A stretch of DNA of 64,000 nucleotides from an uncultured Gammaproteobacteria bacterium (GCA_963811485.1 CAWERO010000004.1:55232-119231), one strand, 5' to 3'. Positions 6,279 to 64,000 are shown, numbered from the stretch's first letter. Numbers and translations: made by a program. Notes: generated by a model not told the origin, from the sequence alone.

Positions 6279-7451
6279 ATGTCCAGCGTCGACGCCTGCG
6301 AATTCAACTTCGGCCTGGGCGATACCCTCGATGAAGTCCGTGCCCAGGTGCGCCGGTTCGCGCGGGCGGAAATCGCCCCGCTGGCCGACGAGCTCGACCG
6401 CACCAACCTGTTTCCGGCGCAACTGTGGCCAAGGCTCGGTGCGCAGGGCCTGCTTGGCCTCACTGTTCCCGAGCGCTGGGGCGGCGCTAATCTCGGCTAT
6501 CTCGCCCACATTGTGGCGATGGAGGAGATCTCGCGCGCTTGCGCAGCGGTCGGCCTGTCCTACGGTGCGCACTCGAACCTGTGTGTCAACCAGCTGCGAC
6601 TCAATGGCAACGACGTGCAGCGTGACCGCTATCTGCCGCGGCTGGTCAGCGGTGAGCACGTCGGCGCGCTTGCCATGTCCGAGGCAGGCGCCGGCTCCGA
6701 CGTGGTCTCGATGCAACTGCGCGCCGAGCGGCGCGGCTCGGGCTTCGTGCTTACGGGCCGTAAGATGTGGATCACCAATGGGCCCGATGCGGATGTGCTC
6801 GTGGTCTACGCGAAGACCAGTCCGGGCGCCGGATCAAAAGGCATCACGGCGTTCATCGTCGAGAAGGAATTTCCCGGCTACTCGACCGCTCAGAAGCTCG
6901 ACAAGCTCGGCATGCGCGGCTCAAATACCTGTGAGCTGGTGTTCGAACAGTGCCTGGTGCCGGCCGAAAACGTGCTGGGGGAGCTCGATCGCGGCGTCAG
7001 AGTTCTGATGAGCGGGCTCGACTACGAACGCGCGGTGCTTGCGGCCGGCCCGCTGGGCATCATGGCCGCGGCGCTTGACCTCGTGCTGCCCTACGTGCAC
7101 CAACGCAAGCAGTTTGGCGAGCCCATTGGCACGTTTCAACTCATGCAGGCCAAGATTGCCGACCTGTACACGAACCTCAATGCCGCACGCGCCTTTGTCT
7201 ATGCGGTGGGCCGCGCCTGTGACGCCGGCACCTGCACGCGCCAGGATGCCGCCGGCGCGGTGCTGTTCGCGGCCGAGAAGGCCACTATTGCCGGGCTCGA
7301 GGCCATCCAGATACTGGGCGGAAATGGCTACATCAACGATTATCCGGCCGGCCGGCTGCTGCGTGATGCCAAGCTCTATGAGATTGGCGCAGGCACACAG
7401 GAGATTCGCCGCCTGCTGATCGGACGCGAGCTCTACCAGAGGACCGCATGA
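6279..7451 (+). CDS. ivd: isovaleryl-CoA dehydrogenase
   Basis: Intact 390-aa ACAD with IVD-like sequence ([59 protein letters not shown]). It is divergent from the carboxylase genes. Confidence 0.9.
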
Positions 7452-8173
7452 GGGTCGAATTCGAGCCGGTGGAATTCGAGCCCGCCTACCGCAAGGTGGC
7501 GGCGGCCCTGCTCGAGCGCATCACCGATCGAACCCTGAGCGCGGGCGATCGCCTGCCGCCCGAAATCGAGCTGGCGCGCCAGTTCGGAGTCAATCGCTCG
7601 ACGGTGCGTGAGGCGCTGCGCGAACTCGAGTCAGCCGGCATGCTGCGCCGGCACCGCGGATCCAAGCTCATGATGGTGAGTCGCCCCGAGCGTGGTATTG
7701 TCGCCGACGGGGTGAGTCGCGCCCTCGCCCTCCACGATGTCAGTATCCGGGATGTCTGGGAGGGCCTGAGCATACTCGAACCGCCGATTGCCGAGGCCGC
7801 GGCCCGCAACCGCCGCGCCGCGGACCTGGCGGTCATCGACTCGACGGTCGCGCACGCCATGCCGCGCGGCGCAGATGCCGCGGCGCGCCAGGCTGCTGAC
7901 TTCTTCCGCCATGTCGGCGAAGCGACGCACAATCGCGTGCTGATGCTCGCGCATGAGCCCCTGTTGCAGCTGCTCGCGCCCTCATTGCGCACGATCATAG
8001 ACGAGGTGGCCGCGGCCCGCGCGCGCATCGCCTCGGCGCAACGCCGGATACTTGATGCCATTCGCACTGGTAACAGTAGCGAAGCGCGCGCCTGGACCGA
8101 AAAACATATCCGCGACTATCGCCGCGGCTTTGACCTGTCCGGGATCGATCTGGCCCATCGCGTGGAGCGCTAG
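7448..8173 (+). CDS. GntR-family transcriptional regulator (FadR/FCD subfamily)
   Basis: N-terminal winged HTH ([31 protein letters not shown]) plus an all-helical C-terminal domain. Its ATG overlaps the ivd stop (ATGA). Confidence 0.85.
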
Positions 8174-8278: not shown

Positions 8279-9895
8279 ATGAAGCGCTATGACGCCATCG
8301 TGATCGGGGCCGGGCACAACGGCCTGTGCAATGCGGCGTTTCTCGCCCGCGCCGGACTCGAAGTGCTGGTGCTCGAGTCAAACCCTTACATCGGGGGCGC
8401 GACGGTAAGCCGCGAACTGCATCCGCACTGGACCTACTCCAACTGCTCTTACGTGTGCAGCCTGCTGCGGCCGGAAATCTACCGTGCGTTGGAGTTGTCG
8501 CGCCACGGTCTGCAGATTGTCCCGTACGGCGGCGGGGTAACTTTCACGCGTGATGGCGACATTCTCGGCAGCTACCTCGACAAGGACGTCAAGCGTCGCG
8601 AGATCGCCCGTCACAGCCCGCGCGATGCCGATGCCTACATGCGCTACGGCCGCGACACGATGCGTCAATGCCGGCTGATCCGCTCGCTGCTGATGCGCAC
8701 GCCCCCCGACCCGAGTTCGCTCCGCTGGCGCGACCTGCGCGAACTGATGCACCTGGGCAAGGAGTTCAGCAAACTGGGTGAAGCCGGCATCTGCGACACG
8801 ATCCGCTTCTACACGCTGTCGATCGCCGATTATCTGGACGAATATTTCGAGTCCGACGTGGTCAAGGCCACGTTTGCGGGCAGCGGCATTATCGGCACGG
8901 CGCTCGGTGTGCAGTCGCCGGGTACGGCCTATATCCTGCTCCACCATTACATGGGCGACGTGGACGGCCAGATGGGTGCCTGGGGTTTTGCCCGCGGTGG
9001 CATGGGTGCTGTGGCCAATGCGCTGGCGGCAGCGCTGCAGGCGCATGGCGGAGAGATCCGGGTCGGTGCGCCGGTCGAGCGGATCCTGGTGCGCCGCGGC
9101 CGGGCGTGCGGCGTGGCGCTCGCGAACGGGGATGAGTACCAGGCGAACATCGTGGTGTCGAACGTCGACCCCAAACGCACCTTCCTCAAGTTGATGGATC
9201 CAGCCGACCTGCGGCCGGAGTTCCTGCAGCGCGCGCACAATTTCAAGATCCGCGGCTCCTCGGGAAAGCTGAATATCGCGCTCGACGGCCTGCCGGAATT
9301 TCCGGCGCTCGGAGCCGGCAATCCACTGATCAGCGGCGACATGCATTTCCTTGATTCACTCGAGCGCTATGAGCGCGCGTACGACGACTGGAAGAGTGGC
9401 ACCTGGTCGAAGGATCCCTACCTGGATCTGCTGATGCCCTCGCTGACTGACCCGACCATGGCGCCGCCGGGCAAGCATATGATGTCGGTGTTCGTGCAGT
9501 ATGTGCCCCCGAAGATCAATGGACACGAATGGACCGACGCCGATCGCGAGGCATTCAAGCAAACGGTGTTCGACCAGATCGCCCGCTACAGCCCGAATTT
9601 CCGCAGCCTGGTGCTGCATGCTGAAGTACGCACGCCGCGTGAGCTGGAGTCCGAAGTCGGCCTGACCGAAGGCAATATCTTCCAGGGCGAGCTGACCTTC
9701 GACCAGCTGTTCTTCAACCGCCCCTTCCCCGGCTACGCGCAGTATCGCGGCCCGATACGTGGCGTTTACATGTGCGGTTCAGCGACTCACCCCGGAGGGG
9801 GGGTGATGGCTGCGCCGGGCGCCAATGCCGCGCGGGAGATACTCCGCGATCTGCGGCGCAACTCCACCGTGCCCGAGGGGTGGAGCGATGACTGA
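8279..9895 (+). CDS. FAD/NAD(P)-binding oxidoreductase, phytoene-desaturase/amine-oxidase superfamily (module 1, subunit A1)
   Basis: Intact 538-aa ORF with an N-terminal dinucleotide fold (YDAIVIGAGHNGLCNAAFLARAGLEVLVLE) and a C-terminal [25 protein letters not shown]. Confidence 0.8.
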   Translation: MKRYDAIVIGAGHNGLCNAAFLARAGLEVLVLESNPYIGGATVSRELHPHWTYSNCSYVCSLLRPEIYRALELSRHGLQIVPYGGGVTFTRDGDILGSYLDKDVKRREIARHSPRDADAYMRYGRDTMRQCRLIRSLLMRTPPDPSSLRWRDLRELMHLGKEFSKLGEAGICDTIRFYTLSIADYLDEYFESDVVKATFAGSGIIGTALGVQSPGTAYILLHHYMGDVDGQMGAWGFARGGMGAVANALAAALQAHGGEIRVGAPVERILVRRGRACGVALANGDEYQANIVVSNVDPKRTFLKLMDPADLRPEFLQRAHNFKIRGSSGKLNIALDGLPEFPALGAGNPLISGDMHFLDSLERYERAYDDWKSGTWSKDPYLDLLMPSLTDPTMAPPGKHMMSVFVQYVPPKINGHEWTDADREAFKQTVFDQIARYSPNFRSLVLHAEVRTPRELESEVGLTEGNIFQGELTFDQLFFNRPFPGYAQYRGPIRGVYMCGSATHPGGGVMAAPGANAAREILRDLRRNSTVPEGWSDD

Positions 9896-11449
9896 GCGGT
9901 GGCCGGTCATCGTCATTGGCGCCGGTCACAACGGCTTGGTGTGCGCGGCGTACCTGGCGCGCGCCGGGCGCAAGGTGCTGGTGCTGGAGGGAGCGACGCA
10001 GGTAGGGGGTGCCGCGGTAACGCGCGAGTTCGCGCCCGGCTTCCGGGTGTCGGCGGTGGCGCATCTGCTGCACCTGCTCGACCCGGTCGTGGAGCGGGAG
10101 CTGGCACTGGCGCAGCACGGGCTGGCTTACGCGCGAACCGGACTGCGCACCGTGGCGCTGTCGACCGAGCGGCCGCCGCTCAGCCTGGCGGGCGGTGAGG
10201 TGTACGCCGGCGAGGTTTCGAGTGCGGATCGCGCGGCGCTGCGCTCGCATGCCGCCCGCATGCAGAAATTTGCACAGGTGATCGCGCGTCAGCACGGTCG
10301 CGTACCCCCGCGGCTCCGCTTCGAGTCCTGGCGTGATGTGCTGCCGGCAGCGGCTGTCGCCCTGGATATACGGCGGCTCGGCCGGCGCGGACATGCAGGA
10401 ATTCCTGCGCGTGGCGACCATGAATATCTTCGACGTGCTGGAAGAGCAATTTGATCACCCGCAGCTCAAGGCGGCGCTGGCGCTCGACGCAGTCCTGGGG
10501 ACGCGGCTTGGCCCGCGGTCGGGCAACAGCGTGTACGCCGCGCTTTACCGCCAGAGCGGTTCGGTCAACGGCGCGCAAGGCGCGCTCGCGCTGCCGCGTG
10601 GCGGAATGGGAGCAGTGACCGCCGCGCTCGCCGCAGCGGCGCGGAGCGCCGGGGCGGAGATTCGCTGTGGTTCGCCCGTTGCAGAAATCATCGTGAAGGA
10701 AGGCCGCGCGGCCGGTGTGCGCCTGCAGCAGGGGCAGGAGTTGATGGCGGACATCGTGGTGTCGAATGCGGACCCGAAAGCCACGCTGCTGCGGCTGCTG
10801 GGCGCGCGTCACCTGGAGGCGGAGTTCGCGCGCCGCGTGCATCAGGTGCGCACCACGGGTACCGCCGCGAAGCTCCATCTGGCGCTGAGCGGCCGTCCGC
10901 ATTTCCTGGGCCTGGCGGCCGAACAACTGGGCGAGCGCCTGGTGATTGCTCCCGATATCGATTATATCGAGCGCGCCTTCAACCCCGCCAAGTATGGCGA
11001 GTGCTCCGCCGCAGCCGGTGATGGAAATCACCCTGCCCTCGACCCATGAGGCCAGCCTGGCGCCAGCCGGCAGCCACGTGCTTTCGGCCGTGGTGCAATA
11101 TGCTCCCTACGATCTCAAGGGCGGCTGGGCGGCCGGCAAGGCGCGCTTCCAGGCCGCCATCATGGCCGTGCTCGAGCGCTATGCGCCAGGGATCGGCGCC
11201 CTCGTGCTGCATGCGGAACTGCTGACGCCGGCCGACATCGAGCAGCAGTTCGGAATCAGCGGCGGACACTGGCACCACGGCGAGCTGGCGCTCGATCGCT
11301 TCATGATGCTGCGGCCAGTCGTGGGCGGCGCGCACTACGCCATGCCGGTGGACGGACTCTACCTGTGCGGCGCGGGCTGCCATCCCGGCGGCGGCGTCAT
11401 GGGCAGCGCCGGACGCAACGCGGCGCGCGTAATACTCGGGAGGCGGTGA
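9888..11449 (+). pseudogene. FAD/NAD(P)-binding oxidoreductase, same superfamily (module 1, subunit B1); 2 frame breaks as sequenced
   Basis: MTERWPVIVIGAGHNGLVCAAYLARAGRKVLVLE. The sequence runs through ORFs 9825..10454, 10333..11049 and 10946..11449 and ends [26 protein letters not shown]. The breaks are near 10385 and 11015, located by comparison with paralog B2. The ATG at 9888 lies inside the last codons of A1. Confidence 0.8.
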
Positions 11450-11454: not shown

Positions 11455-12645
11455 ATGCTGGCTCGCGATCACTTCCGGCAGACCGTCTGCGAGACGCCGT
11501 TTCACCCGCGGACCGCAGCCGCCAACCAGTTGAACCTGTGGCATCGCTGGCGCGATCACACGGTCGCCGACGCCTATATCGATGTCGGCATGGAATACAA
11601 CGCGATTCGCAACAGCTGTGCGGTGTTCGACCTGTCGCCGATGACCAAGCACCTGATCACCGGTCCGGATGCGCTCGCGTACATGAACCGCCTGGTTACG
11701 CGCGATGTGGCAAAGATCAAGCCGGGGCGCGTCGGCTACTGCTTGTGGTGTGATGACGCCGGGCAGGTGATCGACGATGGCACCATTTTCCACCTGCGCG
11801 AGGGTGTTTACCGGCTGTGTTCGCAGGAGCGGCAACTCGACTGGCTGTACACATCAGCCCTCGGGTTCGAGGTGCGGATCTGCGAGGAAACCAATGAGGT
11901 CGCCGGGCTCGCGTTGCAGGGCCCGACCTCGTGCGCGGTCCTGAAAGCCATGGGGCTCGCGAGCATTGAGACACTGACGCCATTTGGCCTGCGCAGTTAC
12001 CCGTTTGCGGGCGGCCAACTCGAGGTGTCACGCACCGGCTACACCGGCGACCTGGGATACGAACTGTGGATCGATCCGGCGCGTGCCCTGCAACTCTGGG
12101 ATGCCTTGTTCGCTGCCGGCCAGCATCACGGCATCCGCGCCATCGGCACGCTGGCGCTGGAGATGAGCCGTGTCGAGGCCGGCTTCATCCAGGCTGGCGT
12201 CGACTTCCTGCCCGCCGACCGGGCGGTGCGCGCCGATCGCACACGCTCGCCGTTCGAACTCGACCTGGGGCGCCTGGTCGATTTCAGCAAAGCCAATTTC
12301 ACCGGCCGCCGAGCGTTGCTCGAGGAGCAGCGCCGCGGCTCGCGCTTTCGGCTGGTCCGTCTCGACGTTGAAGGCAACAAAGCTGCCAAGGACGCCTACA
12401 TCTACGACGGGCGGCGCCGCAATATTGGCGTCGTCACCTCATCGATGTGGTCGCCGGCCGCCAAGGCCAGCATCGCGCTGGCTTCGGTCACGATGCCGTG
12501 GGGCGCGCCAGGCGATGAGCTGTTTGCCGAGATCTACTACCAGAAGGAACTCAGGTGGAACCGGTTCATGGCGCGCTGCCGGGTCGTCGAGGGTGCATTC
12601 TTCGATCCACCGCGCCGGCGGCAGACTCCCGCGGCCGACTGCTGA
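11455..12645 (+). CDS. aminomethyltransferase (GcvT-fold, folate-binding) family protein (module 1, T1)
   Basis: Intact from MLARDHF (GGGAGG 12-17 nt upstream). GcvT-family sequence: AIRNSCAVFDLSPMTK, LALQGPTS, SRTGYTGDLGYELW, ALEMSRVEAG. Confidence 0.85.
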   Translation: MLARDHFRQTVCETPFHPRTAAANQLNLWHRWRDHTVADAYIDVGMEYNAIRNSCAVFDLSPMTKHLITGPDALAYMNRLVTRDVAKIKPGRVGYCLWCDDAGQVIDDGTIFHLREGVYRLCSQERQLDWLYTSALGFEVRICEETNEVAGLALQGPTSCAVLKAMGLASIETLTPFGLRSYPFAGGQLEVSRTGYTGDLGYELWIDPARALQLWDALFAAGQHHGIRAIGTLALEMSRVEAGFIQAGVDFLPADRAVRADRTRSPFELDLGRLVDFSKANFTGRRALLEEQRRGSRFRLVRLDVEGNKAAKDAYIYDGRRRNIGVVTSSMWSPAAKASIALASVTMPWGAPGDELFAEIYYQKELRWNRFMARCRVVEGAFFDPPRRRQTPAADC

Positions 12646-12661: not shown

Positions 12662-14007
12662 ATGATCACGGGCGTGCAACGATTCTGGGCGGGCGCGGCC
12701 GGGCAGAATCCGCCGACCATCGCTCGCGCCCAGGGGCTCCACATCTGGGATCGCGCGGGCAAGCGCTACATCGATGTCACCTCCGGTCCGATCGCCGTCA
12801 ACATCGGTCACGGCAATGAGCGCGTGTTGGGCGCCATGCGCGAGCAGGCCGAGCGATTCTGCTTTGCCTATCCCAGCAATTTCGAAAGCGAGCGCAGCAC
12901 GGAACTGAGCCAGCGGCTTGCCCGCCTGGCCGGGCCCGGCCTTGATTGCGCGTTTTATGTGTCGAGCGGCTCCGAGGCCGTGGAGAAATGCCTGCAGTTC
13001 GCGCGCCGCGTAGCGCTGGCGCGTGGCGAGGGCGCGCGCTACAAGATGATCAGTCGCAATCCGTCCTATCATGGCAGCACGCGCGCCACGATGGCGCTAT
13101 CGGCCGACCCGGCCTACGCGCCCTATCTGATCGGCTACCCGCCGGGGCTCCACGTGCCGGCGCCCTCGAGCTACCGGCCGCCGGCCGGCGTGGGAGCGGG
13201 GGTGCATGCGCTGCAATGCGCGGAGGCGCTGCGCGCGCGCATCAGTGAAGCCGGCCCCGACTCGGTGCTGGCCTTCATCATGGAGCCGGTGATGGGTTTC
13301 TGTGGTGGCGCCGACAGCGCGCCGCCCGAGTACTACCGGCGCGTCCGCGAGATCTGCGACGAATTTGGCGTGCTGCTGATCTACGACGAGATCGTCAGTG
13401 GCGCTGGCCGCACTGGCACCTTCCTGGCGGCCGACCGCTGGCCCGCGGCGCGACCCGACCTGGTGGTACTCGCCAAGGGTCTGGGCGGTGGCTACGCTCC
13501 GCTGGCCGCGTTCCTGGCGCCCGCGCAGGCTGGTGGATGCGGTGGCCGGCGCCGGTGGATTCCATCGTCGGTCACACCCACAAGGCGCAGCCACTGGCTT
13601 GTGCCGTTGGTCTGGCGGTGCTCGACGTGACCGTCGAAGAGCGGCTGATCGAGAAAGCGGCGGAGCTGGGCGAGTACCTGCGCGGCCAGCTGCGAGGGCT
13701 CCAGCGCGACAACCCCGTGATCGGCGACGTGCGCGGCCTCGGCATGCTGAACGCCATCGAGATCGTCGCCGATCGCGACAGCAAGCGCATGCTGCCGCGG
13801 GAACTGGACGTCATCGGTCGGGTGCAGGCCCTGGCGCGCGAGCAGGGCCTGCTCATCTACGGTCGCCGCACGCACGCCGGGCGCTTTGGCGACTGGATCA
13901 TGGTCGCGCCGCCACTGATTGCGACGCGCGCGGACGTCGACGAGATCGTCGAGGGTCTGGGCCGCTGCCTGACCCGCTACCAGCAGGAACAGTCGGTCGC
14001 GAGCTAG
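12662..14007 (+). pseudogene. class-III (omega-type) PLP aminotransferase; 2 frame breaks near 13525-13565
   Basis: MITGVQRFW.., GPIAVNIGHGNERV, SGSEAVE, LLIYDEIVSGAGRTG, LAKGLGGGYAPL. The sequence then hops frames (RLVDAVAGAGGF, then IVGHTHKAQPLACAVGLAVL) and ends at TAG 14005-14007. Confidence 0.85.
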
Positions 14008-33281: not shown

Positions 33282-35905
<2,624 letters not shown>

Positions 35906-47197: not shown

Positions 47198-48116
47198 ATG
47201 AAAGGCAATTTCCTGGTGAAATACCGGATCGGCAGGCACCGGCGCTGGCTGATCATCGCTCCGCCGTTCCTGTTCCTGCTGGTCTTTTTCCTGATCCCGT
47301 TCGGTTTTGCGCTGACGATCAGCTTTGCCCAGACCGCGATCCGCGTGCCGCCGTTCACCGATATCGTGTCGATGGACGCGCATCACCACCTGCATCTGGT
47401 GCTGAAGCTGGACAACTACCGCTATCTGCTCACGGACAAAGTCTATGCCCTCTCCTACTTATATTCCCTGAAAACCGCGTTCTTTTCCACGCTCATCTGC
47501 CTTCTGATTGGCTATCCGATGGCCTATGCCATCTCGCGCACCTCGCGCAGCACGCAGAGCATCCTGTTGCTGATCATCATCCTGCCGTTCTGGACTTCCT
47601 TCCTGCTGCGGGTCTACGCGCTCGAGGGGATCATTCGCGAAAACGGCCTGCTCAACCAGGCGCTGCTGTGGCTGGGTCTGGTCCACCGAGCCGCTGCAGC
47701 TCATGCACACGACCAGCGCGGTCTACCTCGGCATCATCTATTCCTACCTGCCGTTCATGGTGCTGCCGCTGTTCGCGACGCTGGAAAAGCTCGACCGCAC
47801 GCTGCTGGAGGCCTCGGCCGACCTCGGCAGCCCGCCCTGGCGTGCCTTTCTCGACGTTACGCTGCCGCTGTCGATGCCCGGGGTGATCGCCGGCTCGATG
47901 CTGGTGTTCATTCCGGCGATCGGCGAGTTCGTCATCCCGACGCTGCTGGGCGGCGCCGACAATCTGATGATCGGGCGCGTGCTGTGGGACGAGTTCTTCG
48001 GCAACCGTGACTGGCCGGTCGCCTCCGCGGTCGCGGTCGCATTCCTGGTGCTGCTGGTCGGACCGATCGCCATCTACCAGCACTATCACAGCAAGGAGCT
48101 CGAGGCGCACGCGTGA
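47198..48116 (+). pseudogene. polyamine-type ABC transporter permease (PotB/PotH-like); 1 frame break about 47685
   Basis: RRWLIIAPPFLFLLVFFLIPF.. then AVYLGIIYSYLPFMVLPLFATLEKLDRTLLEASADLGS (EAA loop) in another frame. Confidence 0.85.
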
Positions 48117-48966: not shown

Positions 48967-50062
48967 TTACTCGCCGGTCTTGATGCGCGTCCAGATTCGC
49001 GTGCGGATCCGCTCCAGGGTGATGCTCGTTTCCACGTTGGGGTAGAGGCGCGCTTCGATCTCGGGCGTCGGGATACAGGATGGGGTCGTTCAAAATGTCC
49101 GGCCGGACGTAGGCATTGGCCGCGAGGTTGGCGTTGCCGTAGTAGATTTCATTGGTGATGCCGGCAATGACTTTCGGGTCCATGAGGTAATTGAGGAATG
49201 CGTAGGCCGCCTCCGGATGGGGCGCGCCAACGGGAATCAGGAACGAGGACAAGGTCAGATTGGCACCCTCGACGGGCACCGTGAACGCCAGGTGCACTGG
49301 CGCCCCGGCAGCGCGCGCGCGCGCCATCACCGTTTCGTAGTCGGCTGACCACGACATTGCGATGCATACCTCCTGGTTGGCGAGCGCGTTCATGTACTCG
49401 ACCGAATCGAAGGTGCGGACGTAGGGGCGCACCTTGAGCAACAGCCGCTCGGCCGCCTCATAGTCCTCGCGGCGCGTGCTGTTCGGGTCCAGATGCAGGT
49501 ACTTCAAGGCGAGCTGCAGCACATCCTGCGGCGAGTCGAGGAAAGTCACGCCGCAGTCGGCAAAGCGCGCAATGATCTCCGGCTTGAAGATCATGTCGAG
49601 GCTCCCGACCGGTGCGTCGTGCATGCGTGCGCGGATCTGCTCCACGTTGTAGGCGAAACCGTTGATCGCCTGCATGTACGGCACGCCGTAGCGATTGCCC
49701 GGGTCGCTGTCCTCCAGGTTGGCCAGGAAGTGCGGATCCAGGTTCTTCCAGTTGGGCAGCTTTGACTTGTCGAGCGGGATGTAAACACCAGCCCTGATCT
49801 GGCGGCTCGAGAAGTTCGAAGACACGCTAACCACGTCGTAGCCGGATTCGCCGGCCAGCAGCCGTGCCTCGGCGGTTTCCTCCGCGTCGTAGGTGTCGTA
49901 CACCACCTTGATGCCGGTGAGTTTCTCGAAGCGCTTGATGGTGCCGGTACCGATGAAGTCGGACCAGTTGTAGATGAACAGGCGCTTGTCCGCCGCCACG
50001 GCCTCGCCGCCGGTGGCGGCCAGCAGCAGTGCAAGTATGCCGGCGCGGTACTTCCGCATCAT
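48967..50062 (-). pseudogene. periplasmic polyamine/putrescine-binding protein (PotF/PotD-like); 1 frame break about 49075
   Basis: Signal peptide MMRKYRAGILALLLAATGGEAVAA. LFIYNWSDFIG, YDVVSVSSNF, YGVPYMQ. The last 33 aa (TPEIEARLYPNVETSITLERIRTRIWTRIKTGE-TAA) lie in another frame. Confidence 0.85.
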
Positions 50063-50068
50063 GCAGTC

Positions 50069-50076
50069 ATTATAAT
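50069..50076. promoter_or_regulatory. palindromic ATTATAAT element (TATAAT on both strands) between the divergent potF-like and amidohydrolase genes
   Basis: attataat at 50069-50076. On the minus strand TATAAT ends 6 nt before the potF-like ATG (50062). On the plus strand it lies 46 nt upstream of the amidohydrolase start. No convincing -35 element. Confidence 0.3.
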
Positions 50077-50121
50077 GGGTGGCGGGCGCACGCATGCGCT
50101 TTGGATTCAGGGGAGACAGTC

Positions 50122-52140: not shown

Positions 52141-53294
52141 TGGGCAAGGTGCGCTCGCGGCCAGGCCGCGCCGGATGGGGTGCGATCGCCTGCCTGCTCG
52201 CTGCCTCGGCCGCGACGGCGGGGCCGCACTCGCGGGCAGCCGTCGCGGCGCTGGTACAGGAGGAAATGGCTGCCCAGTCCATTCCAGGCCTGGCGATCGC
52301 GATTATCGAGCACGGTCACGTGCGCATGGCCCGCGGGTTCGGTTACGCCAATGTCGAGCATGCGGTGCCAGTGACGGCCGCGACCGTGTTTCAATCCGGC
52401 TCGGTCGGCAAGCAATTCACTGCGGCAGCAGTGATGCTGCTGGTGGAAGAGGGCAAACTCTCGCTCGATGATCCGATCGGCCACTACCTGCCGGAGGCGC
52501 CACCCTCCTGGCAGGCCATTCGCATCCGGCACCTGCTGACGCACACTTCCGGCATTGCCGACTACACGACCGAGGCCTTCGATGTGCGCCGCGCCTACAC
52601 CGAGGCCGAGCTGGTGCGCACGATCTGTGCGCTGCCGCTGGAGTTTCCTGCCGGCGAGCGCTACAGCTACAGCAATTCAGGGTATCTGCTGCTCGGGGCG
52701 ATCATGGATCGGGTCAGCGGCCGCCACTACAGCGAGTTGCTGCGCGAGCGCGTGTTCCAGCCGCTGGGCATGCATAGCGCACGCCTGATCGATGAAGCGG
52801 CGATCGTGATGCACCGGGCCGCCGGCTACCGCCTGCTCGACGGCAAGCTGGCCAACCAGGCCTGGGTGGCCCCGGAGCAGAACACCACCGCCGATGGTTC
52901 GCTGTACCTGTCGCTGGCGGACATGATCGCGTGGGACCGCGGCGTGCGCGCCGGGCGGGTGCTGCGTCCGGAGTCCTGGCGGCAGATATTCACCCCGGTG
53001 CGACTGAACAGCGGCAACCCCTACCCTTATGGCTTCGGCTGGGAACTGCCCACCGTGAACGGGCAACAGGTCGAATCGCACGATGGCGGCTGGCAGGGAT
53101 TCTCGGTCCACATATCGCGCTACCTGGGGAGCGATATCAGCATTATCGTTCTGACCAACCTGGCCGAAGGGGATCCGGCGCGCATTGCGCGGCGGGTGGC
53201 GGCCACGTTGCGTGATGAACTGCGAGCGCCAGCGAGAGCCGCCAGCGCTGATTCCAGGCCGGATTCGTCGGTTGCGCTCGCGCCGGTCGACTAG
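52140..53294 (+). CDS. secreted serine hydrolase, beta-lactamase/transpeptidase-like family
   Basis: Intact 384 aa with a signal peptide and the S-x-x-K motif (FQSGSVGKQFTA); also YSNSGYLLLG. The start overlaps the upstream stop (TGATG). Confidence 0.8.
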   Translation: MGKVRSRPGRAGWGAIACLLAASAATAGPHSRAAVAALVQEEMAAQSIPGLAIAIIEHGHVRMARGFGYANVEHAVPVTAATVFQSGSVGKQFTAAAVMLLVEEGKLSLDDPIGHYLPEAPPSWQAIRIRHLLTHTSGIADYTTEAFDVRRAYTEAELVRTICALPLEFPAGERYSYSNSGYLLLGAIMDRVSGRHYSELLRERVFQPLGMHSARLIDEAAIVMHRAAGYRLLDGKLANQAWVAPEQNTTADGSLYLSLADMIAWDRGVRAGRVLRPESWRQIFTPVRLNSGNPYPYGFGWELPTVNGQQVESHDGGWQGFSVHISRYLGSDISIIVLTNLAEGDPARIARRVAATLRDELRAPARAASADSRPDSSVALAPVD

Positions 53295-54506
53295 GCCAGC
53301 GCCGCGGACTCGGCCAGCGCGGCATCGGCCGCCGTTTCTGCCAGATACCATTCGACGAAACGCCGGGCGTAATCCTCCTGCAGTGAATACGGTCCCGGCT
53401 CGTAGTAGCGCGAATTCACGCCCTGCTGATTACGCTCGATGATCAGCTTGTCCTCGACGCTGGTCACCTGCCAGAGCCAGCTGAGGCGCTCGGCGTCATA
53501 GTCGCGCCCCGCCACCGCGTCGGCGTGCACCAGCCAGATGACCTCCATTTCGGTGCGATCTACGGCGCGGGGAATGAAGCGATAGATCACGCCGTGGTCT
53601 GCATAGGCCAGGAAGTCGCTGATCGGACCGATGTCGAAGTAGGTCGAACTGCCGTCGTGTTGCGAAAAGTCGCCCATCAGCGGCGCGACCGGCTGGCCGT
53701 CGGGCGATGCCGGTGAGGTGCCCGGCGAGCAGCGCGCTGCGCAGCACGGACACTGATTCCTGCCCCGGCCGCGCCCGCAGGCCATAGCCATCGACGTCTG
53801 TCGATCTGGATGCCGAGCGCGCGCTGCGCTCGCTGCGCGGCCTGCTCGAGTTCTGCGTGCTCTGCGCCAGCCGGCCGCGCATAGACGTGGCGGCGCGCGA
53901 ATTCCGGGTGCGCGGGCTGGCAGTGATAGCACTCCATGTAATTTTCGAGCGCCAGCTTCCAGTTGGCGTGAATCTCGAAGCTGGCCCGATGCGCCACCTT
54001 TGCCTTGGCCCAGCCATGGGTGCCGGCGGCGCTGGCGAGCGCGCGCTCCGCATCGTCGAGCGCGGGCGGCGCGGCGGCAAAGCTGACGAAGATGAGCCCC
54101 TGCGAGCACCCGCACGTGCAACGGCCTGAGGCCTGCAGTTTCGCGCCGAAACGACGCCGGCATTTCGCGCGCCGCGCGCAGGCGGCCATCGAGCCCGTAG
54201 GACCAGGCGTGGTACGGGCAGGTGAAGCCGCCGCCCTGGGCGGTGCCGGAACGCGTCACGCACACGCGTGAGCCCCGGTGACGGCAGACGTTCAGCAGCG
54301 CGTGCACGTTGCCGTCGGCGGCGCGACACACGATCACGGATTCGGCGGCCGAGATCCACCAGGAAGAAGTCGCCCGTGTCCGGCAGGCTGCTGACGTGGC
54401 CGGCGCAGAACCAGTGCCGCAGCAGCATGCGCTCCATGTCCTGCTCGAAGATCGCCGGATCGGTGTAGAACTCGCGCGGCAGCGAGTAGCCTGCGCGCGG
54501 CGCCAA
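53291..54506 (-). pseudogene. Rieske [2Fe-2S] non-haem-iron oxygenase alpha subunit (GbcA/Stc2-type N-demethylase-like); at least 4 frame breaks
   Basis: YSLPREFYTDPAIFEQDMERMLLRHWFCAGH; Rieske motif CRHRGSRV..CPYHAWSYGLDGRL; catalytic motif NWKLALENYMECYHCQPAHPEF; C-terminus YEPGPYSLQEDYARRFVEWY. The fragments sit in three frames. Confidence 0.8.
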
Positions 54507-54540: not shown

Positions 54541-57171
<2,631 letters not shown>

Positions 57172-57189
57172 GATCGACTCCCCCTGCAA

Positions 57190-58338
57190 CTAGGATTGCA
57201 GCACGATCGCTGCGTTGGCGTTCCAGCTCACGAAGACTTCGTCGCTCCAGTCGATCGACCACTCCGAAGTGCGCTGTTCGTTCTTGCCCAGCACCGTCAG
57301 CATCTTGCCCGTAGGCGTGCGGATCCGGTAGGTCGAGCGGTTGCCCAGGTAGCCGAGCTCGGCGACGACGCCCTTCAGGCGGTTGAGTCGCTCGCCGGTC
57401 GGCGGCTCCTTGCTGAGGCGGATCTTCTCCGGCCGCAGCGCCACCCAGACCTGCTGGCCGACGGCTGACCTGCGCCGCGATCGTCGACCAGCAGCTCGGC
57501 GCCCGCCTCCGGGCTGTGCACGCGGATCTGACCCGGCTCGACCCCGGTCACGGTGCCTTCGAAGAAATTCGTGGTGCCGATGAAATCGGCGATGAAGCGG
57601 CTCTGCGGGAATTCGTAGATCTCGGCCGGCGTGCCCACCTGGATGACCTTGCCGTGGTCCATCACCGCGATGCGGGTGGCGAGCGCCATGGCCTCGTCCT
57701 GGTCGTGCGTCACGAAGATGAAGGTGATGCCGACCTTGTACTGGATGTTCATCAGCTCGAACTGCGTCTGCTCGCGCAGCTTCTTGTCGAGCGCGCTCAG
57801 CGGCTCGTCGAGCAGCAGCACCTTGGGGCGACGGATCAGCGCGCGCGCCAGCGCCACGCGCTGGCGCTGCCCGCCGGAGAGCTGGTGCGGCTTGCGCTGC
57901 GCCAGCGCGCCCAGCTGCACCATGTCGAGCGCCGCCTGGATGCGCTGCGCTGCGCACGGCCGGCTCCAGCGGCATGCGCCGCAGGCCGTAGCCGACGTTG
58001 CTCTCGACCGTCATGTGCGGGAACAGCGCGTAGGACTGGAACATCATGTTGACGGGGCGCTGGTGCGGCGGCACCTCGTTCATCACGGCGCCATCGATGG
58101 TGATCTGGCCGGCGGTCGGCTGCGTGAAGCCCGCCAGCATGCGCAGCAGCGTGGTCTTGCCGCAGCCCGACGCTCCCACCAGCGCGAACATCTCGCCCTT
58201 GAAGATGCTCAGGCTCACGTTGTCGACGGCCGTCACACCAGGATAGGTCTTGCAGACGCCGTCGATGACGACCTGCGGCTGCGCGTCGGGATCGAGCCAC
58301 GGGCGATCGGCAAGCTGCTTGGGATCGGGCTGGCCCAA
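57190..58338 (-). pseudogene. potA: polyamine-type ABC transporter ATP-binding protein (PotA/PotG-like); 2 frame breaks
   Basis: Walker A GASGCGKTTLLRMLAG, Q-loop MFQSYALFPH, signature [15 protein letters not shown], Walker [12 protein letters not shown], and a C-terminal TOBE-like part. TTG start directly after the upstream stop. Confidence 0.88.
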
Positions 58339-59530
58339 CTAGAAATCTCCCGGCGGCGTCACGCGCCGTGCGTTCGGGCGCAAAGAAGGGTTTCTCGACC
58401 ACCTGCGCCCGGCACATGCGCCGTTCCCAGACCAGTTCGCGGCTCAGGTATACCTCCGCCCACATGGTCGTCCCCATCGCAAAGTGCGGCGCTTCGACCA
58501 TAGCAAGCGCGATGTTGCGTTTGCAAGTTGGCGACCACATCGCCGAGGTGACGCTGCCGATTTCCGCCTGGCCCTTGCGGTCGGCGTACAGCAAGGCGTT
58601 CACGGCCGGCTTGTTGCCCGCGATGTCCAGGCCTACGAGCTGCCGCTGCAGTCCCTGGCGCTCTTGATCCAGCAGCGACCGCCGGCCCGTGAAGTGACCC
58701 TTGTCGAAATCGACCAGCCAGCCCAGCCCCAGTTCCAGGGGCGAGCGGCTGGTGCCGATGCGCACCGTGCCCTCGGCCGAGATGAAGTCGATATTGGGCA
58801 TCAGGAACCCGGCCTCGATGCGCGCCATGTTGAGCGCGCGCGAACCGATGGCGCGGATGCCGCGGCTCTGGCCGGCGGCCATCAGCGCATCCCAGAGCTG
58901 GTTGGCCTGGAGCGGATCCACCCACAGCTCGTAGCCCAGGTCGCCGGTAAAACCCGTGCGCGAGACCATCAGGCGCATGCCCGCAGCTTCGAAAAAACCG
59001 AACTCGAAGGGCTTCAGGCGCTCGACACCCGCCAGGCCCAGTTTCTTCAGCACGGCGCACGAGGTCGGTCCCTGCAGTGCCAGCGCGGCGATCTGTTCGG
59101 TGACTTCGCTGACCTGTACGTCGAAGCCGATTGCGGAATCGAGGAACCAATCGAGCTGCCGTTCGGCGGTGCACAGCCGGTACTCGTTCTCGCCCAGCCT
59201 GAATACGGTGCCGTCGTCGATGATGTGGCCGGCGTCGTTGCACCAGACGCAGTAGCTGACGCGGTTCACGCGCAGCTTGCTCAGGTCGCGCGTCACCAGC
59301 CGATTCAGGTAGCGGCCGGCATCGGGGCCGGCGATGCGGTACTTGACCATCGGCGTGAGGTCATAGACCGAGCAGGCATTGCGGATGGCGAAATATTCCT
59401 GGCCGGCATTGGTGAACACATCGACCGTGGTGTAGCCGGCCCACGGGACGAAGCTGTCGACCTGGCTGAGTGCGCGGGCCCGCTCGTGGAATGGCGTTGG
59501 CAGCAGCGGCTGCCTGAAGTGCGGAGCCAT
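58339..59530 (-). CDS. aminomethyltransferase (GcvT-fold) family protein (module 2, T2); probable frame break in the last 10 or so codons
   Basis: MAPHFRQPLLPTPFHE.., AIRNACSVYDLTPMVK, LALQGPTS, SRTGFTGDLGYELW, ALNMARIEAG. About 55-60% identical by eye to T1. As sequenced the frame runs on into potA. A 1-nt shift gives ..RRVTPPGDF-TAG, parallel to the T1 end RRRQTPAADC. Confidence 0.8.
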
Positions 59531-59544
59531 ATCGGCGGTATCGC

Positions 59545-61147
59545 TCACGTAGCTGCCTCCCCCGCGATGACTTGCCTGGCGGCATTGCGTCCGGCAATGC
59601 CCATGACTCCCCCGCCCGGGTGGCAACTGGCGCCGCACAGGTAGAACCCCGGCAGTGGCGTACGATGCTGGGTTGCGCCGGGTACCGGGCGCACGGCATA
59701 GAACTGATCGAGCGCCAGGTCCACGTGATGCCAATGTCCGCCGCTGATCCGGAACTCGCGTTCCAGTGTCCGGCGGGGTGAGCAGCTCGTGCTCGCGCAC
59801 CAGCGCACGCAGCCCGGGTGCGTAGCGGTCGAGCTGGTCGATGAGCTGGCGCGCGAAAATCTCGCGCTGCCCTTCCCAGCCGCCAGCGAGCTGGTACGGC
59901 GCATACTGCACGATGGCCGACAGCACGTGCTTGCCGGCAGGCGCCAGGCCCGGATCGCTCAGCGTCGGCAGGGTGATCTCGAGCGCCGGTGCGGCGGAAT
60001 ACTCGCCGTACTTGCTGTGGTTGTAGGCGTGCTCGACATAGTCGAGCGAAGGCGCGATCAGCAGCCGCGCGCCGTGCGCGGCTGCGGGCAGCCCGCTGAA
60101 CTTCGGCAGCCCGTCGAGCGCCAGGTGGAGCTTCGCCGCCAGGCCGCGCGTGCGCAGATGGTGCACGCGGCGCACGAAGGCCGTGTCGAGGTGCTCGCTG
60201 CCGACCAGTCCCAGGAAGGAAGTCCTGCGGGTCAGCGCTGGAAATGACGGCGCCCGCCGCGATCGACTCGCCCGATTGCAGCGTGACGCCGCAGGCACGA
60301 TCATCGGCGACCGTGACCCGCGCCACTGGCGCGGCCAGGCGGATCTGCGCTCCCGCGGCACGCGCGGCGGCCGCCAGCGCGTCGGCTACGGCGCCGAGCC
60401 CACCGACGGGCAGCGCGAGCGCGCGCACGCCGGCCCCATGTTGTGCGGCGAGGCGATACAACAAGGTCATCACCGTACCCGGTGCGCGCGGTCCGAAGTT
60501 CGTGCCGAGTACGGCGTCAAACCCCAGCGCGCCCTGCAGGAGCGGTGAGCGGAAGTGTTCCTGCAGCAGGTCGTAGGCATTCATGCCGACGATGCGCAGC
60601 AGCTCGCGCATGTCGCGCCTGCCCAGCCGGCGGATCCGCCAACCGAGGCGCATGAGGTTCAGCCGGTCGCTCCAGCGATCGGTGCCGAGCCGCGGCGGCA
60701 GCGCTTCCAGCATCGGATTCAGTCACGGCGGCAAAGCGCTGCATCAGCGCCGTGAAGCCGCGCGTAGGCGTCGCGTGTCTTCGCGGCTCGACTGGTCCCT
60801 CGATACTGCCAGGGCCGGAGACCGCCGAGCAGCAGCGCGGCGCCGTCCGGCGCGAGTGCGGCCGTCGGGAGCGATTGCGCCGCCCAGCGCAGGCCGTGCT
60901 GTCTCCAGCGCCAGTTCCTCGATCAGGCGCTGCCGGCATCTGGTGCAGCAGGTGCGCGCCGGCCGATACGCGGAATCCGGGCGCGAACTCGCGCGTGACG
61001 GCTGCTCCGCCCAGGCGTTCCGCCGCTTCGAGCACCAGCACGGAGCGGCCGGCGCGCGCCAGGTAGGCCGCGCAGGCCAGGCCATTGTGACCGCCGCCAA
61101 TGACGATGCAGTCATAGGCCGCACGTGCGTGTAGCCACGGAGTTCAT
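59545..61147 (-). pseudogene. FAD/NAD(P)-binding oxidoreductase, CrtI/amine-oxidase superfamily (module 2, subunit B2); at least 6 frame breaks
   Basis: [163 protein letters not shown] clear paralog of B1. The ATG overlaps the A2 stop (ATGA). Confidence 0.8.
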
Positions 61148-62752
61148 GTCGCCGCCAGCCGCAGGTCGCGCAGCACGGCGCGCGCGGCGTTTGCGCCCGG
61201 CGCTCCCATCACGCCGCCGCCCGGATGCGTGCTCGAGCCGCACAGGTACAAGCCCGCGCAAGCGGCGTGCGGTATTGCGCGTAGCCGGGAATGGGCCGGT
61301 TGAACAGCAGTTGATCGAAGGTCAGTTCGCCCTGGAAGATGTTGCCTTCGGTCAGGCCGACTTCGTTCTCGATATCGAAGGGCGTGCGCACCTCGGCGTG
61401 CAGGATCAGGCTCTTGAAGTCCGGGCTGTGACGCGCGATCGTGTCGATCACGGTGTCGCCGAAGGCCTTGCGCTTGGCTGCGTCCCAGGGGCCGCTGGCG
61501 AGCTGGTAGGGGCAGTACTGCACGAACACCGACATGTAGTGCTTGCCGTCCGGCGCCATGGTCGGATCGATCTGCGACGGAATAAGCATGTCGATGTAGG
61601 GGGCGCGCGACCAGCGCGCCGTCCTTCCAGTCGTCGTAGGCGCGCTCCATCATCTCGATGGTGTCGGTCACGTGCATGTCGCCGCGGGTGCTGGGCGAGC
61701 CGGCCGGAATGGCCGGGAACGTCGGCAGGCCGTCGAGCGCGATGTTGAGCTTGCCCGAGGAACCGCGGATCTTGAAGTTGCGCACCTGGCGCAGGAAGTC
61801 TGCGGGCAGTTCCTTGGCATCGACCGTTTCGAGGAAGGTGCGCTTCACGTCCATGTTGGAGAGCACCAGCCGGGCGTCGATCTCCTCGCCAGTCGGCCAG
61901 CGCCACGCCGACGCTGCGGCCGTTGCGCACCAGGATCCGCTCCACCGGGGCGCCGGCCCGGATGGTCCCGCCGCTCGCCTGGAGCGAGGCCGCCAGCGCC
62001 TGCGTCACTGCCCCCATGCCGCCGCGCGCGAAGCCCCAGGCGCCGACCGTATCGTCGATGTCGCCCATGTAATGATGCAGCAGCACGTAGGCGGTGCCCG
62101 GCGAGCGCGGCCCGAGCGCCGTGCCGATGATCGCGCTGCCGGCCATGTGCGCCTTGACGATCTCGCTTTCGAAGTATTCGTCGAGGAAATCCGCGATGCT
62201 CATGGTCCAGAAGCGCAGCGTGTCGTACATGCGCGCCTCGCCGAGGCGGTGGAAGTGCCCGCCCAGGTACAGCAGTTCGCGGATGTCGCGCGGCTTGAAC
62301 GAAGTCGGGTCCGGCGGCTCGCGCATCAGCAGCGGCTTGATGAACTTGCACTGGCGGATCATGTCGCGCGCGAAACGGTCGTAGGCCTCGGCGTCGCGCT
62401 TCGAGTGACGCGCGATTTCGCGGCGCAGCGCGTCGTGGTTGTCGTACAGCGCCAGATGCCCGCCATCGTGCATCATCGTGCAGCCGCCGTCGTAGGGAAT
62501 GATCTGCAGGCCGTAGCGCGGCAGCTCGAGCGTGCGCATGATCTCGGGCCGCAGCAGGCTGCACACGTACGAGCAGTTCGAGTAGGTGAAGTCCTGGTAC
62601 AGCTGGCGGCTGACCGCCGCGCCGCCGATGTAGGCATTGCGCTCGAGCACCTGCACCTTGAGCCCGGCGCGCGCCAGATAGCAGGCCGCCACCAGGCCGT
62701 TGTGCCCGGCGCCGATGACGATGGCATCGTACTGCTCGCGCTCGCGGGCCAT
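61144..62752 (-). pseudogene. FAD/NAD(P)-binding oxidoreductase, CrtI/amine-oxidase superfamily (module 2, subunit A2); 3 frame breaks
   Basis: [148 protein letters not shown]. About 65% identical by eye to A1. Confidence 0.8.
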
Positions 62753-62770
62753 GCGCCGGCTGCCGGACGT

Positions 62771-64000
62771 TCAGACTGTGCTGCTGCGCGCCGTAAGTGC
62801 GTTCGGTCACCTCGCGCGCACCGTTCAGCGTCACGTCGACGGCCTTCTCGAAGGCCGTCAGCGTGTCGGCTAGGCAGGAGTCGTCGTGCGCCGCGCTGAT
62901 GAACCAGGGTTCGCGCGAATCCGGCTCGCACAGGATCAGCTCGTCGTGCAGCACCCGCGCCATCGCGTCGTAGAAGGAATAGTCGCTGCCCTTCCAGTCG
63001 CGATAGTTGCGCGGCGGCTCCTGCGCGAAATACAGGCCGCTCATCGACGGATGGCCGACGAAGCTGTGCGGGATGCCGCGCGCGCCGAGCACCGCGTGCA
63101 TGCCGGCGCGCAGGCGCGTGCCGTAGTCGGCGATGCGCTCGAGCGCGTCGGTCTCGTCGAGGATCTCCAGGCACTTCTCCGCCGCGGCCATCGACACCGA
63201 GTGCGCCGTGTAGGTGCCGCCGTGCGCGACGCCCTTGCCGAGCTTGCGCATGATGTCCTCGCGCCCGGCCAGCACCGAGATCGGATAGCCGTTGGCGACC
63301 GCCTTGGCGAAGGTGCACAGGTCGGCCTTGACGCCGTAGAGCTCCTGCACGCCGCCGCGCGCCACGCGGAAGCCGGTCTTCACCTCATCGATGAGCAGCA
63401 CCGTGCCGTACTTGTCGCACAGGCTGCGCGCCGCGCGCAGGTATTCGGGCTCGGCGGCGATGCCCAGGCAGTTGCCCATGATCGGCTCGATCAGCATGCA
63501 GGCGATGCGCCCGGCCGTGCGCTTGAACACGTCCTCGAGCTGGTTGGCATCGTTCGCCTGCACGAAGTGCGCGAAGCCGCGCAGCCCGACCGGAATGCCC
63601 TCGCTGTAGGGCTGTATCTGCGGATCGCCGACCTGGCTCCACTTCTCCATCGGCGTGTACCACATGGCCGCGTCGAACAGGCCGTGGTAGCCGCCCTCGA
63701 GGATGATGTAGTCGTCCCGGCCGGTGTAGGCGCGCGCCAGGCGCAGGCCCGCCATGACCGCCTCGGTGCCGGAATTGGAAAAGCGCACCAGTTCGGCCGC
63801 CGGCACCATCTTGGGGATGCGCTCGGCGACCTGGTATTCGCGCTCGGTCGACAGCGCGAACACGCCGCCGACCTCCATGCCTTCGCGGGCCGCCGCGTCG
63901 ACGCGCGGATCGGCGTAGCCGAGGATCGCCGGGCCGTAGCCCAGGCGATAGTCGACGTAGACGTTGTCGTCGATGTCGGTGACGCGCGCGCCGCGCCCGT
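62771..64000 (-). CDS. class-III aminotransferase (glutamate-1-semialdehyde aminomutase-like); 5' end outside the window, 3' end uncertain
   Basis: ..VTDIDDNVYVDYRLGYGPAILGYADPRVD.., FSNSGTEAVMAGLRLAR, LLIDEVKTGFRVARGG, CTFAKAVANGYPIS, GGTYTAHSVS. As sequenced there is no stop until 61845, well inside A2. A TGA at 62771-62773 becomes in-frame after a 1-nt shift. Confidence 0.75.

Follow-up and report, generated by a model that had tools for sequence, protein, structure and literature searches.

Paralogous PYROXD2-like flavoprotein and GcvT-fold modules in an uncultured gammaproteobacterium, with a possible role in tetrahydrofolate-linked demethylation of methylated amines

The genome segment considered here (64,000 nt from an uncultured Gammaproteobacteria bacterium, GCA_963811485.1 CAWERO010000004.1:55232-119231, G+C content 66.9%), referred to at its full length as the window, carries two copies of a three-gene set, A-B-T, which encodes two flavin adenine dinucleotide (FAD) proteins, A and B, and a folate-binding protein of the GcvT fold, T, and which is accompanied in each copy by a class-III aminotransferase (AT1 or AT2; Table 1). 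The copy at the end of the window, module 2, lies at 64000-58339 on the minus strand in the order AT2-A2-B2-T2, as an initial annotation of this DNA had proposed, with boundaries matching the proposed coordinates; every motif quoted there for A, B, and T was found in the sequence, and the distance to the first copy, module 1, put at about 44 kb, was measured as 44.3 kb. Module 1 was located by tblastn using fragments of module 2 as queries.

Table 1. Genes of the two A-B-T modules and of their surroundings, and single-base insertions in module 2 and PotA. Positions are counted from the first nucleotide of the window; "corrected" lengths are those after removal of inserted bases.
Feature	Position	Strand	Basis
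AT2, class-III aminotransferase, HemL/GntE-like	62771..64000	-	Pfam Aminotran_3, E 3.4e-54
A2, PYROXD2-like FAD oxidoreductase, 534 aa corrected	61144..62752	-	Pfam Amino_oxidase + NAD_binding_8
B2, diverged paralogue of A, 530 aa corrected	59545..61147	-	Pfam Amino_oxidase, full profile
T2, stand-alone GcvT-fold folate-binding protein, 402 aa corrected, GTG start	58339..59548	-	Pfam GCV_T, E 4.8e-61 + GCV_T_C
PotA/PotG-like polyamine-type ABC ATPase, 381 aa corrected	57190..58338	-	NCBIfam potA subfamily
A2 insertions	61892, 61615, 61263, 61250
B2 insertions	61129, 60931, 60901, 60820, 60787, 60774, 60758, 60722, 60224, 59766
T2 insertion	58370
PotA insertions	57951, 57473, 57464
A1, intact 538-aa PYROXD2-like FAD oxidoreductase	8279..9895	+	PYROXD2 homology
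B1, 519 aa after removal of insertions at ~10388 and ~11009	9888..11449	+
T1, intact 396-aa GcvT-fold protein	11455..12645	+
AT1, class-III omega-aminotransferase, PRK07483-like, 447 aa corrected	12662..14007	+
GntR/FCD-family regulator, directly upstream of A1	7448..8173	+	Pfam GntR + FCD; syntenic in L001, L002
BetI-type TetR + second Rieske oxygenase	45444-47174	-
ABC permease	47198-48113	+
PotF-like solute-binding protein	48970-50128	-
GbcA-like Rieske oxygenase alpha subunit, frameshifted by insertions	53345..54506	-	L003 orthologue 286 bits, GbcA cut-off 670

The start-stop overlap of A and B that had been described as common to the two is present in both, but its ATGA form occurs only in module 2, where A2 and B2 share four nucleotides (61147-61144); in module 1, A1 and B1 overlap by the eight nucleotides ATGACTGA (9888-9895). 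B2 and T2 overlap by GTGA, and B1 and T1 are separated by 5 nt. After correction, the TAG stop codon of T2 (58341-58339) directly abuts the TTG start codon of the PotA-like gene at 58338, and PotA therefore belongs to the same operon as T2; the orthologue of this ATP-binding cassette (ABC) ATPase in an intact relative, locus L003, which is 93-97% identical to the window gene, scores 386.5 bits against the TIGR01187 cut-off of 355.6. The 5' end of AT2 is cut by the edge of the window, with about 40 codons lying beyond it, and the part that is present matches residues 41-446 of its L003 orthologue, which is intact and has 449 aa, at 97% identity. As an operon, AT2-A2-B2-T2-PotA, module 2 is intact, and its genes evolve under purifying selection. 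The AT1 frame in module 1 is restored by removal of two insertions, at ~13525 and ~13565.

When the frame-corrected proteins were aligned globally, identities were 67.9% for A1/A2 (360/530), 55.4% for B1/B2, and 54.8% for T1/T2, compared with 39-40% for A vs B and 29.9% for AT1/AT2, and the same values were obtained with the intact orthologues in loci L001 and L003. The similarity between the modules is full-length and extends far beyond the FAD and folate motifs, to which the initial annotation had allowed that it might be confined. Module 2 is an ancient paralogue of module 1. Relatives that carry the modules are metagenome-assembled genomes (MAGs) of uncultured Steroidobacteraceae and other Gammaproteobacteria, and in two related Steroidobacteraceae MAGs the modules share a single contig, where, as in the window, they converge and stand 41-44 kb apart (L001 and L003 on JANYHD010000026.1, L002 and L005 on contig_2722). 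In the related loci, genes were mapped by tblastn, and neighborhoods were counted from 80 loci fetched with T2, using only loci with enough flank. Upstream of T2 (56 loci), B2 was found in 56/56, A2 in 55/56, AT2 in 54/56, and RieskeA(-) in 56/56, and downstream PotA followed T2 in 55/55. The A-B-T set is also carried by alphaproteobacterial plasmids of Rhizobium sp. SL42, Shinella, Fuscovulum, and Parasedimentitalea, where it is accompanied by genes for a TetR regulator, for an aminotransferase of class III, for one or two alpha subunits of GbcA-like Rieske oxygenases, and for a polyamine-type (PotF-type) ABC transporter.

Neighbor-joining trees with 200 bootstraps bear out the view that A-B-T is a conserved core, in that the A, B, and T proteins fall into three separate clades, each of which includes the alphaproteobacterial plasmid copies. 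The A and B clades were each recovered in 200/200 replicates; A1, A2, B1, T1, and T2 were each monophyletic in 200/200 and B2 in 199/200, and B1 and B2 were sisters in 147/200. It follows from the monophyly of the six groups that the three genes were duplicated, or acquired, as a unit, and the split between modules 1 and 2 predates the divergence of the species sampled. The A1, A2, and alphaproteobacterial branches form a trichotomy in the A tree, as do the T1, T2, and alphaproteobacterial branches in the T tree, and the phylogeny does not separate a duplication within the lineage from an ancient separate acquisition. A1 and T1 each have thousands of database homologues, annotated only generically, of which the top 120 are 74-93% identical; within these top 120 sets no A-T or B-T fusion was found and all proteins were stand-alone. 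The literature search, which also took in PYROXD2 in connection with demethylation, returned no characterization of an A-B-T system.

The aminotransferase is the variable partner. Module 2 was correctly described as having a different aminotransferase in a different position: AT2 is HemL/GntE-like and precedes A2, while AT1 is PRK07483-like and follows T1. The further claim that the gene had been swapped and relocated holds for the difference in partner and position, but the AT2-first order did not arise by local rearrangement: in Fuscovulum ytuae, too, the genes stand in the order of module 2, with an upstream aminotransferase 67% identical to AT2. The other alphaproteobacterial plasmids encode class-III aminotransferases of other kinds, so that a change of aminotransferase partner is a recurrent feature of A-B-T modules. 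The AT2-first layout is old and shared, and A-B-T moves, and is duplicated, as a unit. AT2 belongs to class III by its Pfam Aminotran_3 score (184.5 bits, cut-off 30.5), as do the AT1 and AT2 orthologues. Its best PDB and NCBIfam matches are glutamate-1-semialdehyde aminomutase and GntE, in line with its original description as resembling that aminomutase, but it is not HemL by the NCBIfam cut-off, since its orthologue scores 329.1 on the hemL model (cut-off 527.3) and 432.8 on GntE, its best NCBIfam model (cut-off 525). AT1 is likewise below the equivalog cut-offs, its nearest model being the PRK07483 omega-aminotransferase.

Genuine primate and mouse PYROXD2 sequences were obtained by a database search. 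Pongo PYROXD2 and A1 align over the full length (550 columns, E 3e-118) with 39% identity; for B2, the L003 orthologue likewise aligns with PYROXD2 over its full length, at 36%. The motifs VIGAGHNGL and HPGGGVMG are found in both A and B. In the 120 alignment columns that are invariant among A1 orthologues and mammalian PYROXD2, A-type proteins keep 109-115 residues (91-96%), a range that includes the alphaproteobacterial A copies and A2 itself (113/120), compared with 59-83 in B-type proteins. All B-type proteins carry H222Y, H223R, I467W, and F468H, and nearly all carry N466H and Y58H (A1 numbering), so that the LLHH motif of A reads LxYR in B and GNIF reads GHWH. This pattern of retention and substitution leads to the assignment of A as PYROXD2-like, a membership judged without a curated model from full-length homology and retained residues, and of B as a separate partner subfamily that has consistently diverged from A. 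Subunit A is probably the catalytic one, and the B signature possibly reflects a different role in the active site or in partner binding. The Tyr-Arg pair of B takes the place of the His-His of A and PYROXD2 in gamma- and alphaproteobacterial copies, and Fuscovulum alone keeps the Asn of GNIF.

The AlphaFold model of A1 (pLDDT 84.6) has as its best Foldseek match a CrtI-family desaturase (4rep, E 1.3e-24, TM 0.74), followed by the flavin amine oxidases NicA2, MAO, and putrescine oxidase (TM 0.55-0.62), and its superposition together with the FAD motifs places A1 in the CrtI/flavin amine-oxidase fold. The Pfam Amino_oxidase profile is matched from position 3 to 429 or 443 of 443 in A1 and B2 and over about 3-290 in A2 and B1, and extends much further than the match to the DAO model; of the five module proteins scanned, four match that model only in the dinucleotide-binding motif, within about their first 40-50 residues (the best stretch in B1 is 7-337). 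The best NCBIfam model for A and B is the CrtO ketolase, at 225-287 bits against a cut-off of 1000, and on crtI_fam A1 and the orthologues of A2, B1, and B2 score 119-141 bits against 238.1. A and B are paralogous FAD proteins of a PYROXD2/CrtO-like branch of the CrtI/amine-oxidase fold and, by the curated criteria, not carotenoid enzymes.

PYROXD2 differs from A in being a single mitochondrial protein for which a B-type or T-type partner is not reported. Its loss leads to an infantile mitochondrial disorder, and its variants are among the strongest metabolite quantitative trait loci for methylated amines. The reaction that it catalyzes is described as unknown (PMC8777681). Expression of PYROXD2 is inversely correlated with urinary trimethylamine and its variants map plasma dimethylamine (PMC3169529), and variants have also been associated with N2-acetyl,N6,N6-dimethyllysine (PMC13352909).

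The third component, T, has the two-domain architecture of GcvT. T2 scores 206.7 bits on GCV_T (PF01571) and 51.5 on GCV_T_C (PF08669), and T1 179.0 and 35.8, all above the cut-offs of 25.6 and 25.9. In contrast, the scores of the T2 and T1 orthologues fall short of the GcvT models TIGR00528 (179.5 and 146.7, cut-off 235.85) and PRK00389 (227.2 and 206.6, cut-off 300). The best NCBIfam model is Tdm, matched by its C-terminal domain (251-286 bits, cut-off 1100), and the scores on SoxA (144-162), DmdA (138-159), and LigM (65-94) are all below the equivalog cut-offs. Residues 410-784 of trimethylamine N-oxide (TMAO) demethylase (9q59, E 2.7e-50), the C-terminal stretch through which Tdm is the best-scoring relative of T, are covered from end to end by the L003 orthologue of T2, which also aligns with Thermotoga maritima GcvT, and the IDDGT and SRTGYTG-GYE motifs are shared. 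In the tree, all T proteins of the modules group together to the exclusion of Tdm and GcvT (200/200). T is a free-standing folate-binding protein whose nearest relative is the C-terminal domain of TMAO demethylase. Tdm differs from it in having ~790 residues (760-790) and an N-terminal demethylating domain that T lacks, and identity between the two is 34-37%. GcvT is similar to T in length, in its GCV_T and GCV_T_C domains, and in the IDD and SRTGYTG-G(Y/F)E motifs, but T is below the GcvT cut-offs and is coupled to flavoproteins. Neither gcvH nor gcvP was present among the ORFs (open reading frames) scanned against Pfam, and an Rfam scan of the whole window gave zero matches, hence no glycine or tetrahydrofolate (THF) riboswitch.

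Combining a flavin-dependent C-N oxidoreductase with a GcvT-fold THF module is also the design of dimethylglycine oxidase (DMGO) and dehydrogenase (DMGDH), heterotetrameric sarcosine oxidase, and 4-methylaminobutanoate oxidase, and the L003 T2 orthologue matches the folate domains of DMGDH, DMGO, and SoxA with E values of 1e-22 to 1e-28. In that group, however, the flavin domain is a DAO-family one, either joined to the folate domain in one polypeptide or assembled in a SoxABDG complex, whereas the modules have two PYROXD2/CrtI-fold paralogues and a separate T of 396-402 aa, without delta or gamma subunits. T has no FAD domain and its 144-162 bits on the soxA model compare with a cut-off of 1164, which sets it outside the DMGO/DMGDH/SoxA type. 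To our knowledge, every characterized GcvT-fold protein handles a one-carbon unit on THF, and folate-linked oxidative amine demethylation is known only from DAO-family flavoenzymes and Tdm. The closest relatives of T capture a methylene unit released by oxidative or hydrolytic N-demethylation, and in betaine catabolism the flavin-folate enzymes of the DMGO and sarcosine oxidase group take over once betaine has undergone Rieske-type demethylation. In the A-B-T modules, a folate-binding protein of the GcvT fold is tightly coupled to a pair of flavoproteins with the PYROXD2/CrtI fold, in an operon found in dozens of Steroidobacteraceae species and on alphaproteobacterial plasmids. A-B-T would seem to work like the folate-linked amine demethylases, yet it is a member of none of those families.

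The reading that we favor, with a confidence only somewhat better than even, is that A-B-T is a THF-linked oxidative N-demethylase of methylated amines whose product is then transaminated. It is favored because T is coupled to two amine-oxidase/CrtI-fold flavoproteins, because aminotransferases and amine-type transporters are constant companions, and because Rieske oxygenases belonging to the glycine-betaine monooxygenase family recur nearby. In the proposed scheme, a PotF/PotA-type ABC system would import the substrate and GbcA-like Rieske oxygenases would convert a quaternary to a tertiary amine upstream of A-B, which would oxidize the N-methyl C-N bond of a tertiary or secondary methylamine. 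T would capture the one-carbon unit on THF as 5,10-methylene-THF, and the class-III aminotransferase would convert the unmasked primary amine to an aldehyde. For the family, the human genetics of PYROXD2, with its link to methylated amines, independently points the same way. Neighboring genes appear to use the vocabulary of quaternary-amine (carnitine, betaine) catabolism, and from them module 2 is inferred to lie in a catabolic island of the betaine/carnitine type. Within a few kb after PotA, a 3-hydroxyacyl-CoA dehydrogenase-thioesterase fusion is present in 39/55 loci (e.g., L072 12302-13852 and L011 13695-15260), which exceeds the NCBIfam cut-off for carnitine 3-dehydrogenase (595.8 vs 592), and a BetI-type TetR and an acyl-CoA dehydrogenase are present in 37/55 and 38/55, respectively. 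Having the two modules carry out the same chemistry on different substrates is consistent with their regulators, a GntR gene beside module 1 and BetI-type TetR genes near module 2, with their differing neighborhoods, and with the retention of the pair in three genomes.

Several points weigh against this demethylase assignment. The reaction and substrates are deduced solely from gene context and family resemblance, and the fold search is unable to separate a C-N oxidase from a C-C desaturase. The A-B heteromer and the contact of A-B with T are suggested by overlapping or abutting start and stop codons only. The solute-binding protein is PotF-like, of the polyamine type, and not of the OpuAC/ProX type usual for betaines, and with dimethylglycine or sarcosine as the substrate there would be no obvious need for an aminotransferase. 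In the organism's own lineage (window, L003, L005, L025), carnitine dehydrogenase is not adjacent, and a TonB-dependent receptor and a Rieske oxygenase stand in place of the carnitine-dehydrogenase-like genes.

Two other assignments of function are each unlikely, and to a similar degree. T could be a THF-dependent methyltransferase of the DmdA/LigM type that forms 5-methyl-THF by direct transfer of a methyl group from a quaternary ammonium or sulfonium compound, with A-B catalyzing a separate redox step on the carbon skeleton or the amine. The L003 T2 orthologue does match the DmdA model (E 1.2e-46), a DMSP (dimethylsulfoniopropionate)-lyase-family gene is present in the Fuscovulum cluster, and DmdA and LigM are, as far as we know, GcvT-family members that need no flavoprotein. 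However, T scores much higher on the members that capture a methylene unit, the Tdm domain (286 bits) and GcvT (227), than on DmdA (159) and LigM (94), it is always translationally coupled to B, and the matching clade structure of A, B, and T suggests one functional unit. Equally improbable is that A-B is a polyamine or amine oxidase that cuts a non-methyl C-N bond, e.g., in a spermidine-like secondary amine, while T scavenges formaldehyde produced by the Rieske enzymes. Such a role would suit the PotF/PotA-type transporter, the resemblance of the A1 model to putrescine oxidase and MAO, and the Parasedimentitalea cluster, which encodes an acetylpolyamine-amidohydrolase-like protein ("histone deacetylase family") and a GNAT acetyltransferase. 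Yet the T gene is coupled to B and not to the Rieske genes, module 1 has A-B-T without an adjacent Rieske gene, and known formaldehyde capture by the GcvT fold is a matter of channeling within a single enzyme (DMGO, sarcosine oxidase, Tdm).

As read, module 2 might also be taken for a decaying pseudogene copy of module 1 with real frameshifts, since 16 single-base insertions disrupt the frames within its 5.7 kb (58339-64000; AT2 1, A2 4, B2 10, T2 1). Before correction, A2, B2, B1, and AT1 are broken up among several frames, and AT2 and T2 lack their stop codons; the insertion in AT2, near 62780, is inferred to hide a TGA stop at 62773-62771. Integrity was checked by DNA alignment of window positions 57000-64000 with L003 (89% identity). 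All intragenic indels from A2 to PotA are +1 insertions in the window, most of them outside homopolymers and with apparently random inserted bases, at a density in 57000-62800 of about one per 300 bp, and zero in-frame stops or deletions were seen. Deleting the inserted bases gives complete ORFs with correct stops for A2, B2, T2, and PotA, and the corrected proteins are 91-97% identical to their L003 orthologues (A2 95.7%, B2 92.1%, T2 90.8%). Third codon positions take 69-88% of the substitutions vs L003 in the corrected genes. The ratio of nonsynonymous to synonymous substitution rates (dN/dS) vs L003 is 0.036-0.123 (A2 0.054, B2 0.103), and in A2 and B2 it is equal in the first part of the gene and in the remainder.

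The same kind of damage affects unrelated genes between window positions 10380 and 64000, those at 13500-19500 and the essential genes gyrA and aroA included. The DNA_topoisoIV profile of gyrA (33282-35902) is spread over three ORFs, aroA (~27163-28599) is split over at least two, and insertions likewise break the genes for PotA, the TonB receptor, an aldehyde dehydrogenase, and a Rieske oxygenase, whereas positions 1-10380, with seven mapped genes, have zero disruptions and 50113-52119 is likewise free of frame breaks. The insertions are therefore sequence errors that are unevenly spread along the window, and they look like the result of uneven polishing or another sequence artefact. Intact orthologues occur in ~55 species. 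Decay of module 2 is very improbable and was rejected, given that all disruptions are +1 insertions, that the genes are under purifying selection, and that gyrA and aroA are broken likewise; with restored ORFs and low dN/dS neither module is decayed, contrary to one outcome that the initial annotation had allowed for. In practical terms, single-base insertions in this window should not be read as pseudogenization, and any pseudogene call here is unsafe.

Least credible of all is a function of A and B as desaturases or ketolases of carotenoids or isoprenoids, which their "phytoene dehydrogenase-like" names would suggest, for although CrtO is the best NCBIfam model, 4rep the best fold match, and the fold and FAD-binding motifs are shared with CrtI, CrtO, and CrtD, identity to these enzymes is ~18%, the scores are 3-4 fold under the cut-offs, the genes that constantly accompany A and B encode a folate-binding protein, aminotransferases, and transporters of amines, and zero carotenoid genes were identified in the neighborhoods examined.

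Were the demethylase assignment to hold, A-B-T would represent a new enzyme architecture for the turnover of methylated amines, carnitine, and betaine in soil and sea, and the presence of two such modules in some genomes would be explained. A bolder possibility, which we put forward tentatively and rate at somewhat below even, is that A-B-T is a previously unrecognized family of three-component THF-coupled N-demethylases in which subunit A is the bacterial counterpart of human PYROXD2. If so, the family would provide a widespread soil and marine catabolic route for methylated amines that replaces the DAO-type dimethylglycine and sarcosine enzymes. The operon would then predict that the PYROXD2 reaction is the oxidative demethylation of tertiary or secondary methylamines, with candidate substrates such as N6,N6-dimethyllysine derivatives, trimethylamine, and dimethylamine, a testable hypothesis for an orphan mitochondrial flavoprotein.

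The two modules have different surroundings. Module 1 is preceded by the GntR/FCD gene, a candidate regulator of the module, and by leucine-catabolism genes. The latter form an intact leucine/isovalerate cluster (window 800-7451) directly upstream of the GntR gene, with acyl-CoA dehydrogenase, flavin reductase, methylcrotonyl-CoA carboxylase alpha and beta, and isovaleryl-CoA dehydrogenase. Downstream of module 1, on the minus strand (14054-19518), are three genes that are all frameshifted in the window and intact in L001 and L002, encoding a metallohydrolase of the CehA/McbA family with a TolB-like beta-propeller as its fusion partner (~857 aa), another class-III aminotransferase (above the NCBIfam PRK05769 cut-off), and an aldehyde dehydrogenase; these may share a pathway with module 1. 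In the interval between the modules, a 593-aa ORF at 24816-26594 (+) without a Pfam match shares its span with long ORFs of the other strand (24840-26378) and is probably either a spurious high-GC ORF or a gene obscured by frameshifts.

Beyond T2, the window continues with PotA, the TonB-dependent receptor, the GbcA-like Rieske oxygenase, a beta-lactamase-family hydrolase, and an amidohydrolase, and further along with the PotF-like binding protein, the permease, and the BetI-type TetR with another Rieske oxygenase. Neither carnitine dehydrogenase nor a gene of the beta-keto acid cleavage enzyme family (BKACE) was found within the window; by synteny with L003, RieskeA, a BKACE gene, and an ADP-forming acyl-CoA synthetase are expected just past position 64000. 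In some relatives a weak type-I phosphodiesterase/alkaline-phosphatase-superfamily gene (L011 12099-13481) is located between PotA and the carnitine-dehydrogenase-like gene. The two hydrolases between the PotF-like protein and the Rieske oxygenase (50029-53291, plus strand) are a 703-aa Amidohydro_3 protein with no NCBIfam match and a 384-aa beta-lactamase-family, D-aminopeptidase-like protein, and amidohydrolases recur beside A-B-T in L002, Fuscovulum, and Parasedimentitalea.

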